A program made the position numbers and the translations under genes. This document shows, in pieces, positions 1 through 6,909 of a DNA stretch of 64,000 nucleotides (the first letter of the stretch is position 1; each line of letters begins with the position of its first letter). Below the pieces are notes generated by a model that saw only the letters and a program-made list of their open reading frames with translations, made no database searches and was not told where the DNA came from. Origin of the DNA: Candidatus Saccharimonadales bacterium (GTDB lineage Bacteria > Patescibacteriota > Saccharimonadia > Saccharimonadales > UBA10212); assembly GCA_035758565.1 (NCBI GenBank), contig DASTXL010000002.1:147118-211117 (forward strand), written 5' to 3'.

Positions 1-100
1 CAATAAGGCAACAGTTTCACAGAGTAGTTTCATGCTCGGGACGGTGAACAGTCAACAAAATTTCGGCGTCAGCCGACAGAAAGTCTACCACTAGATAAGC

Positions 101-625
101 ATGGCAGAGGAAGAAAATAATTGGGTATACCATTCTAGTGAGAGCGGCACCTCCACCAAGAAGAAATCGCAACCAGTAAGTTGGGAAGCCTCCGAGTATA
201 TCGACCACAAGCAAGGTCCGTTATGGTTCTTGGCGCTTAGCGTGGGAACGGCGATTATCGCGGCCGGAATATATATTTGGACCAAGGATTATTTTGCCAC
301 TGGAGCTATCATAGCGGTGGGCGTAATTGCTGGAGTTTTTGCCCATCAAACTCCTAGAAAGCTGAGCTATGGGTTATCTGGCAACACCTTAACAATCGGC
401 GATAAAGAATATCATCTGTCGGAGTTTAAGTCGTTTTCTATCATCGAAGAGGGAGCAATCAGCAGCGTAGAGTTGACACCACTCAAAAGGTTTATGCCGC
501 CCCTGTCTGCTTTTTTTGAAACTAAAGATCAAGATAAAATTATTGACGCTTTGGCGGATTATCTCCCCTACGAAGACAAAGAACTCGATGGAGTTGAACG
601 CCTTAGTCGCCGCCTCCGCTTCTAG
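101..625 (+). CDS. hypothetical membrane protein (two central TM helices, small soluble C-terminal domain)
   Basis: 174-aa ORF. Hydrophobic segments LWFLALSVGTAIIAAGIYIW and GAIIAVGVIAGVF. No catalytic motif recognised. Confidence 0.55.
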   Translation: MAEEENNWVYHSSESGTSTKKKSQPVSWEASEYIDHKQGPLWFLALSVGTAIIAAGIYIWTKDYFATGAIIAVGVIAGVFAHQTPRKLSYGLSGNTLTIGDKEYHLSEFKSFSIIEEGAISSVELTPLKRFMPPLSAFFETKDQDKIIDALADYLPYEDKELDGVERLSRRLRF

Positions 626-692
626 ACTGGCAATTACCCCTGTTATCTGCTAAAATTATCCATTGTACTAAAGGATTCCTATTGTACAACAA

Positions 693-726
693 GGGGTCCC
701 CGGCAAAGCTTGCCTTTGTTGGGGTA
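693..726 (+). repeat. hairpin module A (GGGGT-CCCC...GGGG-TA)
   Basis: GGGGT, then CCCCGGCAAAG / CTTTGTTGGGG forming an 11-bp stem (two G-U pairs) with loop CTTGC, then TA. Shares GGGGTCCCC and TTTGT(N)GGGGTA with module B at 958-988. Confidence 0.5.
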
Positions 727-859
727 AAGGAGGAACGTAGCCTCAAGTCATTATTTTGCTGGGCAAAATTAGACAGAGGCGCAAGTTCCGACGCGCGCGT
801 GTAGCTCAGGTAGCTCAGACAGGACAATCGCGTCGAGCTTGCGGTTCAGCACTTTTGAA

Positions 860-934
860 GTCCTCATAGTTCAATGGATAGAACACTGGCTTGCGGAGCC
901 GGCGATAGAGGTTCGAATCCTCTTGAGGGCACCA
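860..934 (+). tRNA. tRNA-Arg (anticodon GCG), CCA encoded
   Basis: Manual cloverleaf. Acceptor GTCCTCA/TGAGGGC. D-stem GTTC/GAAC. Anticodon stem CTGGC/GCCGG with loop TTGCGGA (GCG at 893-895). T-arm AGAGG-TTCGAAT-CCTCT. Discriminator A plus CCA. Confidence 0.85.
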
Positions 935-957
935 AAATTGCTGAACTAGCCGAAGTT

Positions 958-988
958 GGGGTCCCCACAAAATATATTTTGTGGGGTA
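958..988 (+). repeat. hairpin module B (GGGGT-CCCC...GGGG-TA)
   Basis: GGGGT followed by the perfect 24-nt palindrome CCCCACAAAATATATTTTGTGGGG, then TA. Related at both ends to module A. Confidence 0.5.
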
Positions 989-1033
989 TTTGTGTCGTAG
1001 GTTCAAATCCTGCCACGCGTACCAACTTAAAAC

Positions 1034-1056
1034 CACCTCATCTCGAGGTGATTTTT
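1034..1056 (+). terminator. Rho-independent terminator after the tRNA locus
   Basis: CACCTC-atctc-GAGGTG hairpin followed by ATTTTT. Confidence 0.6.
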
Positions 1057-1070
1057 AATTTAGAATTACG

Positions 1071-1211
1071 CTACTCGTTGACGCCCAGCGCGGCGTGAGC
1101 AGCATCAACGTCGCTGTCGTAAATGCCGTCAACTACTATAATCTTTTTGCCTTCTTTAATAAACGCACGCCAATGATCTTCGGATTCTTTGCGAACTATA
1201 ATCTTTCCCAT
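1071..1211 (-). CDS. small hypothetical protein (46 aa)
   Basis: Not in the ORF track (under 60 aa). ATG at 1211-1209 preceded by a strong GGAGGAG Shine-Dalgarno. Translation MGKIIVRKESEDHWRAFIKEGKKIIVVDGIYDSDVDAAHAALGVNE. Stop at 1073-1071. Confidence 0.4.
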   Translation of the reverse strand: MGKIIVRKESEDHWRAFIKEGKKIIVVDGIYDSDVDAAHAALGVNE

Positions 1212-1324
1212 AACTCCTCCAAAAAGTTAGTGCGCTATCTACTATCTAAGATAAGCGTACCTGCCGCCGTAAAATTTTTATCATTGAGCTTTACCTAGCG
1301 TGCTGCTAAACTGTGGCGTGATTC

Positions 1325-2092
1325 ATGCCGGCAAAGATAAGAGCAGTGTTTCTAAAACAATCCGGTGAGCTACTGGAAGATGAGAGAGTTGGCGGGCATT
1401 GGCGGGCAGCCGTCAAAGTGGCCGCTAAAATTGCGAATGCTCATCGCAAATTAAACGAGTTACATGTCAGCGGCTTAACCGTAGTTATTGGGGCGGGCAA
1501 CATAGCCCGTGGTAATACCCTTAAAGCGCAGGGTTTGGCCGATAAATACGCCGACGCAATTGGGCGCTGGGGAACGATCGGCAACGCCATGGTTTTGGTG
1601 GGCGCCCTAGAGGCCGCTAAAGTGCCGGTCGAGGTGCTAATAACCGCGAACATGCAGTACCAAGATCCGAAGTTTTCTTTCGACAGCTACAGCCCTCAAA
1701 AAGTACTAGCCGCCCATCGCCGGGGAAAAATAGTAGTGATTGCCGGAGGAACCGGCGAAGATAACGTGACAACAGATAATGCCGTAGCCTTTTATGCCAA
1801 GGACTTTCGGAAAGTGTTCGACGGCGAAATTGCAGTGCTCAAAGGCACTAAATATGACGGCGTTTACGATAAAGATCCAGCCAAAAATAAGGATGCTAAA
1901 AAATATCCGACCATTAGTGCCAAATTTATGCGTGATAACTACGAACAGTTCAAAGTTGTTGATAAAAGAAGCTTAGACCAGCTCATTGATGGGGATTTAA
2001 CCATGCTCATTTATAGCGAACCCCTTCACCCGCTAGAAAAAGTATTGGCTCTTAAAGATTATCAAATTGGCACCCTGGTCACGCCAGACTAA
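1325..2092 (+). CDS. pyrH: UMP kinase-like amino-acid-kinase family protein (divergent)
   Basis: VVIGAGNIARG matches the PyrH GGGNxxRG motif. KIVVIAGGTGEDNVTTDNAVAFYA matches GTGNPxxTTD. YDGVYDKDPAKNKDAKKY matches VDGVYxxDP. Confidence 0.65.
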   Translation: MPAKIRAVFLKQSGELLEDERVGGHWRAAVKVAAKIANAHRKLNELHVSGLTVVIGAGNIARGNTLKAQGLADKYADAIGRWGTIGNAMVLVGALEAAKVPVEVLITANMQYQDPKFSFDSYSPQKVLAAHRRGKIVVIAGGTGEDNVTTDNAVAFYAKDFRKVFDGEIAVLKGTKYDGVYDKDPAKNKDAKKYPTISAKFMRDNYEQFKVVDKRSLDQLIDGDLTMLIYSEPLHPLEKVLALKDYQIGTLVTPD

Positions 2093-2505
2093 GAAGTTTT
2101 GGGCTCTACTTTAGAGGTGCAGAATTGGCAGCGAGAGGCCTTTCTAGGGATGACTCCAAAGCAGTATGGACATTTTCGAGTAGTGGGCTCTGGGGTTTCT
2201 TTAGTGCGCATAGCTAGCTCGCTTAATTTGTTGATGGGCTGCACTACAAAGAAGAAAACAACAAACGCGATTACTAAAAACGACACCAGCACATTAATGA
2301 AGTCACCATAATGAAATACGTGGTTCTTGCCAATAGCAAAAGTTGCCGAAGCAAAACCATCGGCGCCGTTAACTGGCAAAATTGGCGTAATAATATCTTT
2401 AACTAAAGCCTGAACAACACCGTTAAAAGCCGAGCCGATAACAACACCGACGGCTAGGTCAATAACGTTTCCGCGGAGGATAAACTTTTTAAATTCGTTA
2501 AACAT
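2089..2505 (-). CDS. mscL: large-conductance mechanosensitive channel MscL with C-terminal zinc-ribbon extension
   Basis: N-terminus MFNEFKKFILRGNVIDLAVGVVIGSAFNGVV is the MscL signature. The C-terminus carries CPYC...x12...CQFC. Confidence 0.9.
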   Translation of the reverse strand: MFNEFKKFILRGNVIDLAVGVVIGSAFNGVVQALVKDIITPILPVNGADGFASATFAIGKNHVFHYGDFINVLVSFLVIAFVVFFFVVQPINKLSELAMRTKETPEPTTRKCPYCFGVIPRKASRCQFCTSKVEPKTS

Positions 2506-2557
2506 TAACTACTCCTTATCCATCAATTAAACCAGCAATTAGGGCTCTAGCAAAGAG

Positions 2558-3622
2558 TTAGGGATTTAATTGGCGCCGCGCTTCGGACTGAGAGTTTTTG
2601 TTCATGGCCGCGGCTTTGCTACCCGATCTGTTGCTGATCCAAGTAAAAATATTTTCCGAGAAAATAAACACTAGCGCCAGCAGCAGATAAACAGTGCCGC
2701 AAACCACAAAGCTCTTGTCAATTGGATGGGTTAGATCCGTAATAACGCTGCGCACCTCTGTTTGGGTAACATTGTTCGAGATTTTAATATTCGGCACCAC
2801 TGCTTTCTTAACGACTTCGTCGAAACCCCAGCCAAAAGCCAGCGTCAAGATTCCGGCTACGGCCAACGCGAGGCCCACCCGTCGAAGGCCACGGCCTCGA
2901 GTTGAACTTAGCATTACTATGGCAATGGCCAGTAAAATGACCAGGGCTGCTAGGTAGTAAGGTGCCTTTTTGAAGTGCTGGTATCTGTTCGGCAAATTCC
3001 GCAGTTGGTCACTAAAAATGCTTTGATTAGAATTAGAGCTTTTAACGCTACTGGCTGTTACGTCGGATTGGCCCAGGTAGTCTTGGTTGTTAGCAATCTG
3101 TGATTTAACCTGAGTGGCAATTTGTAAGGGGCTTACCCCGGGCGGCAAACAGCTGGCATTTATAACATCGGTAGAAATCCGTGATAACGACGTACAGGTT
3201 GGCAGGGTTGCGGCTCTTTGCTCAATAACCAAAGAAATGTTGTTGGCTAATTTGTCTTTGGGACCCGCTAGGCTGATGTTGAAGTTCGGAGTCTGAGTTT
3301 TACCGTTCAACCAGGCGTAAATACTATCTATAATCTTGTCGGCGTCGCCCTGGACTTCAGTGGGTGTTAGCGAAGATTCGGCAGCGGATTTGATCTGAGG
3401 ATCGTTCAGAGGAATATTGCCAACCGATGTCGAAATGCTCTGCGTTTGCGCTAAAGCATTTGGAACGATTGTTTTATAAATTCCGCTATCGGCCAGTGCC
3501 TTTTTGACGTTGGCAGAGTTACCAGCCGTATGGTTAATACCTATGCTTATGGCTAAGCTAAGCAGGGTCAGAGTCAGCAAGCTAGTAAAGCTAGCTACCA
3601 GGCTTTTTCGAATGAAGCTCAT
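2558..3622 (-). CDS. hypothetical polytopic membrane protein with large extracytoplasmic loop
   Basis: 354-aa ORF. N-terminal TM (LLTLTLLSLAISIGI) and a C-terminal cluster of TM helices. No motif recognised. Confidence 0.6.
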   Translation of the reverse strand: MSFIRKSLVASFTSLLTLTLLSLAISIGINHTAGNSANVKKALADSGIYKTIVPNALAQTQSISTSVGNIPLNDPQIKSAAESSLTPTEVQGDADKIIDSIYAWLNGKTQTPNFNISLAGPKDKLANNISLVIEQRAATLPTCTSLSRISTDVINASCLPPGVSPLQIATQVKSQIANNQDYLGQSDVTASSVKSSNSNQSIFSDQLRNLPNRYQHFKKAPYYLAALVILLAIAIVMLSSTRGRGLRRVGLALAVAGILTLAFGWGFDEVVKKAVVPNIKISNNVTQTEVRSVITDLTHPIDKSFVVCGTVYLLLALVFIFSENIFTWISNRSGSKAAAMNKNSQSEARRQLNP

Positions 3623-3693
3623 AGCGCTTATTGTAGCTTAAGGCTAGTGACTTATGGCAAAAAAAGCTTTAAAATTCCCCTGTTAGCCAGCTT

Positions 3694-3783
<90 letters not shown>

Positions 3784-3869
3784 ATAAAAATTCCTCGGCC
3801 GGCAGGTCGGGGTATTTTTATTGCTGAAAGTACGGCTCGGTTCCTCGGGCGGCTGCTTTAGCAGGCGCA

Positions 3870-3965
3870 ACCGAGGGTTCGTTGGAACGAAAGCACGCGC
3901 AGGAATTTATTTTGAGCATGCTTGAGTGGAGAAGGACGCAGTCCGCTATCCCTCCCTCTCCGCCA
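3870..3965 (+). repeat. partial second copy of the tRNA-Ser 3' end, split by a 66-nt insertion in the T-loop
   Basis: ACCGAGGGTTCG (3870-3881) equals 3753-3764. ATCCCTCCCTCTCCGCCA (3948-3965) equals 3766-3783. Unrelated sequence lies between (3882-3947). Confidence 0.7.
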
Positions 3966-3968
3966 TTA

Positions 3969-4280
3969 TTAGAATGTGAAATCACGCATAGCGTAAAAGA
4001 AAAATACAGAGAAAAGAACGATGGTAATTAGCACAGTTACGATTATAAGATTGGCTGCATTCGCCAAGTGATCCACTAAGCGTTTCTTAGCAAATTTATT
4101 CTTACGCCATTTTTTTATCCCAACCACAGAGGTCACAAAGGCGGTGGTAAAAAATATCCACGAAATTGTTTGCAATATCCAGCTTATTTCGTTGCTCGTA
4201 TTAATGCCTATCCTATCTGCCGCCCAATAAGCCAAGGTGAGTTGTAGTATTGCCAATATAGCCAGTTGATTACTGCTCAT
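3969..4280 (-). CDS. hypothetical small membrane protein (3 TM)
   Basis: 103-aa ORF with three hydrophobic helices and a basic loop KKWRKNKFAKKR. Confidence 0.5.
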   Translation of the reverse strand: MSSNQLAILAILQLTLAYWAADRIGINTSNEISWILQTISWIFFTTAFVTSVVGIKKWRKNKFAKKRLVDHLANAANLIIVTVLITIVLFSVFFFYAMRDFTF

Positions 4281-4296
4281 AAGTCGGATTATATAG

Positions 4297-4986
4297 CTAT
4301 AAGCGTTTTGCGAAAACTAATGCGTCTACCGATTTTGCTCCGGCTTTTCGTAACACGCTTGTCGCCTCGCGAATAGTCGCGCCGGTAGTTAAAACATCGT
4401 CAACTAAAAGAATGTTGCGCCCCGTTATTTTTTGAGGGTTTGAAATATAAAAAGCTTTTTGCAACTGCTTGATCCTATCTGAACGCCTAGCGCCAACTTG
4501 ACGGGATTGCCCGACGCGCTTAAGGCAGGGCATGGACTTAAAGCCTAAGTTGTCGGCCAGAGTACGGGCCAGTAGGGAGCAGTGATCAAAACTTCTTTCT
4601 CGAACGCGCGCCGTGGCTGTAGGCACCGGCACTATGACATAGTCCAGGTTCGCAAATGCACCGTTAATATAAGGCTGAGCAGAATTAGTCATAATGGTGG
4701 CGATTTCTCGAACTGCCGTGCGAAGGTGTTTAAATTTATAAGCTTGAATTAGTTGCTGCGCTACACCATCGTAATCGGTAGCTATAATGACGTGCCTAGG
4801 AGAGCCGGCCTGGCAGCGCTTGCAGCTGCGTGCAAGCGGACTGAGCGCACCGCAGTTGTAGCATCGCTCGCCAAAAGGAACGATGTTAGCCTCCAGGCAG
4901 GGCTCGCATAAACTAGCGCCTTCGGCGCCGCAGCCCACGCAATCGGGCGGCGCCAACCACCCAATAACTCTTTCCAAAACGCTCAT
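4297..4986 (-). CDS. comFC: ComF-family phosphoribosyltransferase (competence protein ComFC-like)
   Basis: N-terminal four-Cys pairs CVGCG...CEPC...CYNCG...CKRC. C-terminal PRTase motif ILLVDDVLTTGAT. Confidence 0.85.
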   Translation of the reverse strand: MSVLERVIGWLAPPDCVGCGAEGASLCEPCLEANIVPFGERCYNCGALSPLARSCKRCQAGSPRHVIIATDYDGVAQQLIQAYKFKHLRTAVREIATIMTNSAQPYINGAFANLDYVIVPVPTATARVRERSFDHCSLLARTLADNLGFKSMPCLKRVGQSRQVGARRSDRIKQLQKAFYISNPQKITGRNILLVDDVLTTGATIREATSVLRKAGAKSVDALVFAKRL

Positions 4987-5030
4987 GCCACTGTTGTAAT
5001 TCTTCTGTTGTTAAAGTTCATGGTAACATA

Positions 5031-6607: not shown

Positions 6608-6909
6608 ACCCAGCACCTAGCATCAATATTGGTAAAATCGCCTCATGTACTCTCTCTATCTGCTAAGGAGCCTTGAGACGAAAGAGTTTTACGTTGGTGC
6701 AACCCTGACTTAAGAGGCGATTTTACTCACACAACGCCTGTAAGAATATCGCCACCAAACACGGAGCACCTTTGAGGTTGGTTTATTATGAGGCATACTC
6801 GACTAAGACAGACGCCGTTCGAAGAGAAGCTAGACTGAAGCAATACGGCCAGGCTCTACGCCAAATCAAGGCCAGAATAACCTTAGTCGATTGATGCTAG
6901 GTGCTGGGT
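6608..6909. mobile_element. 302-bp element bounded by perfect 20-bp terminal inverted repeats, carrying a decayed GIY-YIG gene
   Basis: ACCCAGCACCTAGCATCAAT (6608-6627) is the exact reverse complement of ATTGATGCTAGGTGCTGGGT (6890-6909). It lies in the only large gap of the pilin array. Confidence 0.6.
6645..6894 (+). pseudogene. GIY-YIG nuclease-family mini-gene, frameshifted
   Basis: Frame 1 (6645-6713) gives MYSLYLLRSLETKEFYVGATLT*. A shifted frame (6709-6894) gives LKRRFYSHNACKNIATKHGAPLRLVYYEAYSTKTDAVRREARLKQYGQALRQIKARITLVD*. Together these resemble the small stand-alone GIY-YIG (URI-domain) proteins, with a 1-nt frame disruption near 6708-6711. Confidence 0.6.

Follow-up and report, generated by a model that had tools for sequence, protein, structure and literature searches.

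Miniature inverted-repeat transposable elements (MITEs) and foldback elements are small, gene-free and non-autonomous, and they have terminal inverted repeats. In 2002, Williams reportedly sorted integrase targets within transfer RNA (tRNA) genes into sublocation classes that include the anticodon loop. Integrating elements are described, in the passages of PMC9897764 that deal with them, as leaving tRNA gene fragments and attachment-site (att) scars. The section of PMC3293823 on the tRNA-Thr(GGU) locus of Caldiarchaeum subterraneum describes its disruption by a mobile element, and its authors there invoke a mobile element and a short time frame. Here we analyzed a stretch of 64,000 nucleotides (nt) from a Saccharimonadales bacterium, called the window throughout, in which a complete 75-nt tRNA-Arg(GCG) gene is nested inside the separated halves of another tRNA-like sequence, the shell (positions 795-1024).

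We consider the shell to be the relic of the lineage's resident 77-nt tRNA-Arg(GCG), replaced from within by a cassette, and we give this reading a probability of roughly 85%. The pattern of the nest is far beyond chance: the shell ends have the letters of the relatives' intact gene, the flanking repeat is rare, and the arrangement is found in contigs of two other studies. The window corresponds to C2:147118-211117 of its own genome (G000), which comprises 839 kb in two contigs, C1 and C2, and is 98.6% complete.

Anatomy of the nested locus

The remains of the old gene were aligned by eye to a 77-nt orthologue. tRNA genes were called with ARAGORN and Rfam (RF00005), and the calls were repeated with introns allowed and with a relaxed score. 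The features of the locus are as follows.

627-656, + strand: promoter-like site (CTGGCA, 18 nt, TAAAAT preceded by TG) of the resident tRNA-Arg locus; the motif recurs in relatives
693-794, + strand: structured pre-tRNA leader of about 100 nt (GGGGTCCCC hairpin, AGGAGG box, second hairpin, GGCGCAAGTTCCGACGC), ending exactly at the shell's first base
795-809, + strand: 5' end of the shell, with the acceptor 5' strand, nt 8-9 and the D-stem 5' strand of the old 77-nt gene; 15/15 match in the loci of eight relatives and in G015
810-818, + strand: tandem 9-nt duplicate of 801-809 (GTAGCTCAG), in this strain only and missing from the X2 and X3 contigs
819-844, + strand: decayed middle, with the D loop, D-stem 3' strand, anticodon-stem 5' strand and anticodon loop to nt 37 (by-eye alignment)
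845-947, + strand: 103-nt insert between old nt 37 and 38, consisting of a 15-nt leader (845-859), tRNA-Arg(GCG) (860-934) and a 13-nt trailer (935-947)
843-851, + strand: left arm of the inverted repeat, GGTTCAGCA, whose first two bases belong to the old anticodon loop
939-947, + strand: right arm of the inverted repeat, TGCTGAACT, pairing with 843-851
948-955, + strand: resumption of the old gene with nt 38, the anticodon-stem 3' strand and the start of the variable loop, AGCCGAAG; 8/8 match to the orthologue
956-993, + strand: 38-nt hairpin insert in the old variable loop, a copy of the dispersed GGGGTCCCC repeat, terminator-like
994-1024, + strand: 3' end of the shell, with the end of the variable loop, T arm, acceptor 3' strand, A and CCA; 31/31 match in six of eight relatives, 30/31 in the other two
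1034-1060, + strand: terminator-like hairpin (1034-1050) and T run behind the old gene

An earlier note on this DNA, made from the sequence alone, had described a tRNA-Arg nested in a tRNA-like shell at 795-1024. All the elements it described are present, with small corrections of their coordinates. The acceptor 5' strand GCGCGTG occupies 795-801, and its complement CACGCGT at 1014-1020 pairs with it through six Watson-Crick pairs and a G1.T72 pair; the discriminator A and CCA follow at 1021-1024. The D-arm motif TAGCTCAG does occur twice, although the exact tandem unit is GTAGCTCAG (801-809 and 810-818). The T arm (997-1013) had been called perfect, but it has four Watson-Crick pairs and one G.T pair, the same as in the working orthologue. 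A 9-bp bracketing helix likewise exists, with its right arm at 939-947 as previously given; its left arm, however, lies at 843-851 rather than 844-852, and it comprises eight Watson-Crick pairs and one G.T pair. It brackets the inner tRNA, but not exactly, with 8 nt and 4 nt between the helix and the tRNA. The 75-nt inner tRNA-Arg(GCG) at 860-934 was called by both ARAGORN and Rfam (65.1 bits).

The 103-nt insert lies exactly at position 37/38, which is one junction out of 76 possible. Seven pairs of the inverted repeat are inside the insert, and two use the old anticodon loop, TTGCGG at 839-844. Inverted repeats of at least eight perfect pairs flank only two of the 42 tRNA genes of G000. In the decayed middle, an extra A was found at 836 in the anticodon stem. 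The nest region folds far better than shuffled sequences (z = -5.3), and the outer acceptor stem is not formed in the minimum-energy fold.

Identity of the shell and probable expression of the inner gene

A similarity search with positions 780-1040 against 61 genomes (60 relatives and G000) separated the two components of the nest. The inner gene was matched at 92-100% identity in six genomes (G009, G019, G032, G035, G026 and G017), and the last 31-32 nt of the shell were matched at 97-100% identity in eight genomes, with 92% over 39 nt in a ninth. ARAGORN and sequence inspection identified the matches to the shell as the 3' end of an intact 77-nt tRNA-Arg(GCG), which we label 77a. The 77a sequences from the loci of eight relatives, plus G015, where the gene is split across two overlapping contig ends, were compared base by base. 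Their first 15 nt are identical to 795-809 in all nine relatives, and their last 31 nt are identical to 994-1024 in seven; G004 and G048 differ by one T-loop base.

Judging from its surroundings, the locus is orthologous to the tRNA-Arg(GCG) locus of the relatives, because at 24 of the 26 loci of relatives a homologue of the upstream gene (101-625) lies no more than about 1.3 kb from tRNA-Arg(GCG), tRNA-Ser(GCT) and tRNA-Ser(TGA) recur as its neighbours, and the promoter motif TGnTAAAAT...CCCCTGTTA stands directly before tRNA-Arg(GCG) in both 75- and 77-carriers. The earlier note had advised inspecting this locus in related genomes. There we found a single ordinary tRNA-Arg with unrelated flanks, which explains the shell and does not dismiss it.

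No tRNA was called in the outer shell by ARAGORN or Rfam, even with introns allowed or the threshold lowered. When the duplication, the cassette and the hairpin were deleted in silico, ARAGORN gave only a poor tRNA-Ala(tgc)-like fold; the insert-free shell has a two-pair D stem, the extra A at 836 and a shifted loop, and is no tRNA-Arg. Since removal of the inserts restores no tRNA-Arg, the shell is unable to act as one even with all inserts spliced out. Among the readings that the earlier note had left side by side, that of an outer gene disrupted by insertion and turned into a pseudogene is thereby supported, and we can name the gene as the lineage's own 77-nt tRNA-Arg(GCG) and the insert as its functional replacement. 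For the suggestion of a two-piece RNA held together by the helix we found no evidence; the helix is there, but the D arm and anticodon stem are damaged and vary between strains.

Two other identities for the shell were considered and rejected. It might have been a transfer-messenger RNA (tmRNA), but ARAGORN found no tmRNA, and Rfam finds one elsewhere, at C2:337738-338128. It might also have supplied a missing tRNA: tRNA-Ile(GAT) and tRNA-Ala(TGC) are lacking in the assembly, but the shell is Arg(GCG) by orthology. The 16S ribosomal RNA (rRNA) gene (C2:84-1014) is cut by the contig end, and these two tRNA genes are probably in the unassembled rRNA spacer.

The two versions are only 66-68% identical, and the inner gene is thus no copy of the outer one; it has only the 13-nt anticodon arm in common with 77a. 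Its body resembles the 75-nt tRNA-Arg(CCT)/(CCG) class (72-76% identity). It is the sole GCG gene among the 42 tRNA genes of G000. Bacteria usually read CGU and CGC with an ACG (inosine) tRNA-Arg. No ACG gene is present among those 42, and the GCG anticodon of tRNA-Arg serves CGU/CGC in G000 and in all relatives typed.

The site at 627-656 is the sole promoter-like site on the + strand ahead of the nest, and none was found within the insert. Terminator-like hairpins stand behind the inner gene at 963-986 and 1034-1050. This layout of motifs suggests that transcription of the inner gene starts at the promoter of the old one and runs through the leader of about 100 nt at 693-794. Leaders of the same family precede at least 11 other tRNA genes or relics of G000, and Rfam has no family for these leaders or for the hairpin repeat. 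Members of the leader family have a variable first hairpin, an AGAGGAG box, TAGCC, GAAGC, a TTTTGCC...GGCAAAA hairpin, CGAGG and GGCGCAAGTTSCGACG abutting the tRNA, and they stand between the promoter and many different tRNAs. The leader is also present in relatives' loci L017, L281, L289, L290 and L291; at the orthologous tRNA-Arg loci, some relatives have it and others do not.

The strains were compared through contigs of runs X1 (the probable source run, Logan contigs), X2 and X3, and hence in three strains only. The X1 contigs reproduced 560-1023 and 994-1160 with zero differences. Record 13 of X3 bridges 560-1157 with 22 substitutions and 12 gap letters, and records 7 and 8 of X2 cover 732-946 and 917-1004. 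The nest is not an assembly error, because contigs from two independent soil studies bridge the same arrangement. Both the X2 and the X3 strain are without the 9-nt duplication, and both differ from the window at 828, 830, 831 and 991 and carry an additional A behind 829; further differences lie at 838 and 1020 in X3 and at 843 in X2. In the insert (845-947), no difference was found in the X2 or X3 contigs. In the comparison with X3, five differences fall in the 26 nt of the decayed middle (819-844) and two in the remaining 120 nt of the nest outside the tRNA (p=0.002), whereas the shell ends, with one difference in 46 nt, do not depart from the flanks, with 18 in 368 nt (p=0.71). These strain differences fit the decay of a dead gene.

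History at the locus and competing explanations

The history of the two gene versions was traced on an RpoB tree (IQ-TREE, LG+G4, with ultrafast bootstrap and Shimodaira-Hasegawa-like approximate likelihood-ratio test), on which 26 of 29 genomes were typed for the 75/77 state. GlmS was dropped as a marker, being present in only 10 of 30 genomes, and RpoB was taken instead. Six relatives carry the 75-nt version alone. The 75/77 state requires five changes on this tree, at least four of them forced by well-supported branches, and a single clade of 75-carriers, a grouping chosen after sight of a quick tree, was rejected (approximately unbiased test, p = 6e-6). By this tree, the 75-nt and 77-nt versions were swapped at least four times in the family. 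G032 (75) and G021, which has a hybrid-looking 77-nt gene, are sisters (100/100), and G017 (75) groups with G031 (77a) at 100/99. In locus L004 of G032, the 3' end of the 75-nt tRNA-Arg(GCG) was also noticed to recur at 1739-1765, about 165 nt behind the gene, as a 27-nt stretch of 96% identity.

The closest match to the insert is in G009, a genome of a different genus. Positions 847-934, comprising the tRNA and 13 nt of leader, are identical (88/88) in G000 and G009. When 32 same-anticodon tRNA pairs of these two genomes were compared, a leader identity of 13/13 was found only for Arg(GCG); the next pair had 11/13 and the rest at most 8/13, and the tRNA bodies are identical in only three of the 32 pairs. 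Thirteen pairs are less than 85% identical, though RpoB is 86% identical; examples are Cys (53/74), Arg(CCT) (58/76) and His (60/77). Replacement of tRNA versions seems to be common in the family. The leader and 75-nt gene occur together in three of 49 family genomes, always at the same locus, and a second insertion site was not found. Beyond the 88 nt, the G009 flanks have no significant likeness to the shell (725 and 1489 of 2000 shuffles scored as well). The string GGCTTGG in the G009 leader might be a vestige of the shell, an unproven hint.

We infer that the insertion took place long after G000 and G009 had separated, and that the unit was acquired laterally or moved within the lineage, because the G009 flanks are unlike the shell, the other leaders and promoters differ between the two genomes, and between close strains the ends of the shell have changed at about the rate of the flanks. 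An older insertion, inherited vertically from the ancestor of G000 and G009 or maintained in long coexistence, with G009 losing the shell and with no recent transfer, is the best of the competing accounts, but we regard it as unlikely. It would agree with the placement of G000 and G009 as sisters, albeit weakly supported (82/58), within a clade (88/93) that includes G014 and G015, and with their sharing of the leader and 75-nt gene at the orthologous locus. The leader of the more distant G019 is also the same at 10 of 13 positions, and the leader may therefore be conserved for its function. However, besides the lack of significant shell likeness in the G009 flanks, the other tRNA leaders of the two genomes share only about 1-8 of 13 positions, with one sharing 11, and their promoter regions can hardly be aligned. 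Over such a distance, 46 of 46 bases would not survive in a neutral shell, whereas between close strains its ends change about as the flanks do. The sister pair G014 and G015, moreover, has intact 77-nt genes.

Several observations weigh against a recent replacement from within. The sister placement of G000 and G009 is weak, and a shared old insertion is compatible with it. No trace of a shell was seen in the relatives that have the 75-nt version alone; therefore, the nest may not be the general route of swapping. In G032, G035, G017 and G026, the 75-nt gene directly follows the promoter, in the way the 77-nt gene does in other relatives; this has the look of ordinary allelic replacement, which probably lies behind some of the swaps. 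The nested Arg arrangement was found in no other species representative (two structured patterns in genome_contigs, with 0 matches each), in scans for nested or tandem 75/77 genes that may omit the window's own record. No nuclease, integrase or transposase gene was found at the nest locus or at the 26 loci of relatives (scan of 127 of the 137 open reading frames (ORFs) of at least 100 amino acids), the sole nuclease-like match in that scan being one PD-(D/E)XK ORF in G021. There is no target-site duplication, and no base is duplicated at the insert junctions. The left and right flanks of the insert are single-copy in the 839 kb, unlike those of a multi-copy mobile element. Finally, the three substitutions in putative stems, 838 (C>T), 843 (G>A) and 1020 (T>C), leave pairing intact or strengthen it, which would also fit a conserved structure; two of these three are transitions at G.T pairs, which are unable to break pairing. 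Matches to 16- and 17-mers across the junctions (at least 120 and 79, in genome_contigs and metagenome_contigs) were discarded as chance, the retrieved loci being without shell or inner gene.

A rival reading, which we consider improbable, is that the shell is still a functional structured RNA, a tRNA-like scaffold that does not decode. In such a scaffold, the acceptor stem and the T arm with CCA would be kept, a long helix would stand where the anticodon arm was, and a long hairpin would form the variable arm. The scaffold might act as a substrate of RNase P or the CCA enzyme that releases an upstream leader RNA, or it might stabilise the precursor. In working orthologues, the 46 nt at the two shell ends read the same, the pairs concerned (804-838, 843-947 and 795-1020) are kept or improved, the remaining strain changes fall in putative loops, and all three larger insertions are in loop positions of the old cloverleaf. 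However, two of the three apparently conservative changes, as G.T transitions, keep pairing regardless, and the shell ends vary no more slowly than the flanks (1/46 and 18/368, p=0.71); only three strains were compared. The outer acceptor stem is missing from the minimum-energy fold, and the terminator-like hairpin at 963-986 precedes the 3' piece.

A working outer tRNA-Arg whose intervening sequences (in the D loop, at 37/38 and in the variable loop) are removed from the RNA, with the inner tRNA released from the 37/38 intron, is very improbable. The earlier note had raised an unusual intervening sequence as one reading, and it is not supported here: with introns allowed, ARAGORN called the inner gene only. 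The large insert does occupy the canonical intron position 37/38, one junction in 76 by chance, and its ends are paired. However, EndA-type endonuclease (PF01974) gave no match in G000, a 98.6% complete genome, while the control search found it in four of four archaeal genomes, and no Rfam group I intron match was obtained in window positions 1-5000 at E values up to 1. On inspection, the junctions 844/845 and 947/948 are opposite each other in one continuous 9-bp helix, with no 3-nt bulges. With the inserts removed, the D stem is still broken and the anticodon stem still has its extra A, and no tRNA-Arg is called; the would-be exon sequence varies between strains, and a working GCG gene is already in the genome. 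As to the classes of intron, a protein-spliced tRNA intron agrees in its 37/38 position, but no bulge-helix-bulge was seen at the junctions and no EndA was found in G000. A group I intron would be expected to have about 200 nt or more, compared with 103 nt here, 75 of them tRNA, and no core match was found.

That the nest is a chimera assembled from strains with 75-nt and 77-nt genes is almost certainly wrong: although the assemblies of G002, G006 and G015 break inside their tRNA-Arg(GCG), the X1 contigs match 560-1023 and 994-1160 without difference, the X2 and X3 contigs span both junctions with substitutions of their own, and the junctions hold sequence absent from both gene versions. In G002, G006 and G015, the contig ends (L283/L293, L286/L294 and L288/L295) overlap by about 30-55 nt within tRNA-Arg(GCG), and these broken assemblies may reflect strain mixtures at the locus.

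Proposed course of replacement and comparison with known systems

Under replacement from within, a 103-nt piece of DNA with a complete, different 75-nt tRNA-Arg(GCG) and short flanks would have entered the resident gene at 37/38. The incoming gene, with the same anticodon, would have come to lie downstream of the resident promoter and leader and upstream of the terminator-like hairpins, where it could have taken over the decoding of CGU and CGC at once. The loss of a single-copy essential gene could have been tolerated because of this immediate takeover. The old gene would then have decayed or been hit again, leaving the scrambled D arm, the extra base in the anticodon stem and the 38-nt hairpin in the variable loop, and the 9-nt duplication would have been added in this strain only. 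The bracketing inverted repeat is presumably a by-product of the insert flanks or of the joining reaction and not a functional helix. Such repeats may stem from pairing between the leader and trailer of the incoming gene or from snap-back during joining.

Genes for nucleases were noticed elsewhere. The PD-(D/E)XK endonuclease ORF of G021 (L008, 2454-2894; PF11645, E 4e-14) lies between tRNA-Ser(TGA) and tRNA-Ser(GCT), about 900 nt from the hybrid-looking 77-nt tRNA-Arg(GCG), and this hybrid and the 75-nt version have the D stem and the T arm in common. G000 has six GIY-YIG matches, none at the nest locus. One is a short match (28 bits) in a 61-amino-acid open frame at 6709-6852 of the window (C2:153826-153969), probably a gene fragment; two are small complete ORFs at C1:26356 and C1:363744.

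The genome contains further tRNA relics. A second relic, at C2:328036-328250, stands upstream of the working tRNA-Glu(TTC) (328251-328325) and has a promoter and leader of its own. Its first 32 nt are the same as in the working gene; it continues with a reversed 38-nt hairpin in the anticodon loop, 17 nt corresponding to nt 35-51 (one mismatch) and a longer insert. A tRNA-Met(CAT) gene at C2:290493-290569 (region to 290615) is bracketed by a perfect 12-bp inverted repeat, TTTTGTACTTTT / AAAAGTACAAAA; ahead of it stands the 5' stump (about 26 nt) of a different tRNA version, fused to a leader, in the same layout as in the Arg nest. Because the 12-bp repeat of tRNA-Met is unrelated to the repeat of the Arg nest, these repeats are not the conserved ends of one element family.

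The hairpin repeat that splits the variable loop of the Arg shell also splits, in reversed orientation, the anticodon loop of the dead tRNA-Glu, each time as a 38-nt copy. It consists of GGGGTCCCC, an A/T-rich stem-loop and GGGG, with copies in the window at 693-731 and 956-993 and elsewhere in the genome at C1:232680, C1:60372, C1:41224, C2:287929, C2:328103, C2:266421 and C1:332893. G000 has ten GGGGTCCCC sites, compared with about 6.4 expected by chance; nine have the hairpin, and seven are within about 170 nt of a tRNA gene. Related copies were seen in relatives' loci L023 and L029, in the latter between tRNA-Ile and tRNA-Ala. This repeat may be a tiny insertion module.

The nest consists of a complete tRNA with the same anticodon, bounded by inverted repeats, inside the loop of a dead resident copy, and this agrees with a replacement cassette of about 100-150 bp. 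It is tempting, but doubtful, to go further and see the 103-nt unit as one of a class of tiny, gene-free tRNA cassettes of candidate phyla radiation (CPR) bacteria that replace genes from within, in an addiction-like selfish strategy. If so, such cassettes would land in the loop of a gene with the same anticodon, kill that gene, borrow its promoter and become indispensable. This would explain the frequent swaps, with 13 of 32 pairs less than 85% identical between two genera and at least four swaps of tRNA-Arg(GCG).

Read as a replacement, the nest would show base by base how a single-copy essential tRNA is exchanged in a very small genome with its function unbroken: the newcomer sits in the old gene and uses the old promoter, and both halves are left as a dated scar. 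Taken with the frequent swaps in relatives, it points to a turnover of tRNA genes in Saccharimonadales-like CPR bacteria that is much faster than tRNA conservation suggests, and that may be driven by selfish DNA. Shells of this kind are at risk of being mis-annotated as pseudo-tRNAs, split tRNAs or intron-bearing tRNAs, and tRNA sequences are poor phylogenetic markers in this group.

In comparison with the known systems, the nest resembles the att scars, as far as these are described in the relevant passages of PMC9897764, in that the DNA breaking into a tRNA gene supplies tRNA sequence of its own, by which the function is kept, and the displaced pieces lie beside it. It differs from what is described there in that the insert has 103 nt and is gene-free, both halves of the old gene are kept as dead flanks, and in place of a partial copy that matches, the insert carries a whole tRNA of different sequence (66-68% identity). 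An insertion of the integrase type is not supported: there is no direct repeat of shell parts, and no integrase or recombinase was found among the scanned ORFs (127 of 137) of the locus and the 26 relatives' loci. With the tRNA-Thr(GGU) locus of Caldiarchaeum, as presented in the section cited (PMC3293823), the nest has in common the population heterogeneity at one tRNA locus and a 5' fragment upstream of a complete other version. That case, in the same section, is archaeal and involves a 1.8-kb recombinase-encoding element and spliced introns, with no complete gene nested in an anticodon loop. Of the systems described so far, these two come closest, and the elements in both bring recombinase genes, along with tRNA copies that are partial or contain introns. 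As for MITEs, the insert is small and gene-free and has terminal inverted repeats of 7-9 bp; in contrast, it has no target-site duplication, its flanks are single-copy, and the repeat at tRNA-Met is unrelated. In full-text literature searches, we found no description of a gene-free piece with a complete, different tRNA of the same anticodon in the anticodon loop of a dead gene. The known part is the insertional disruption of a tRNA gene with a functional spare.

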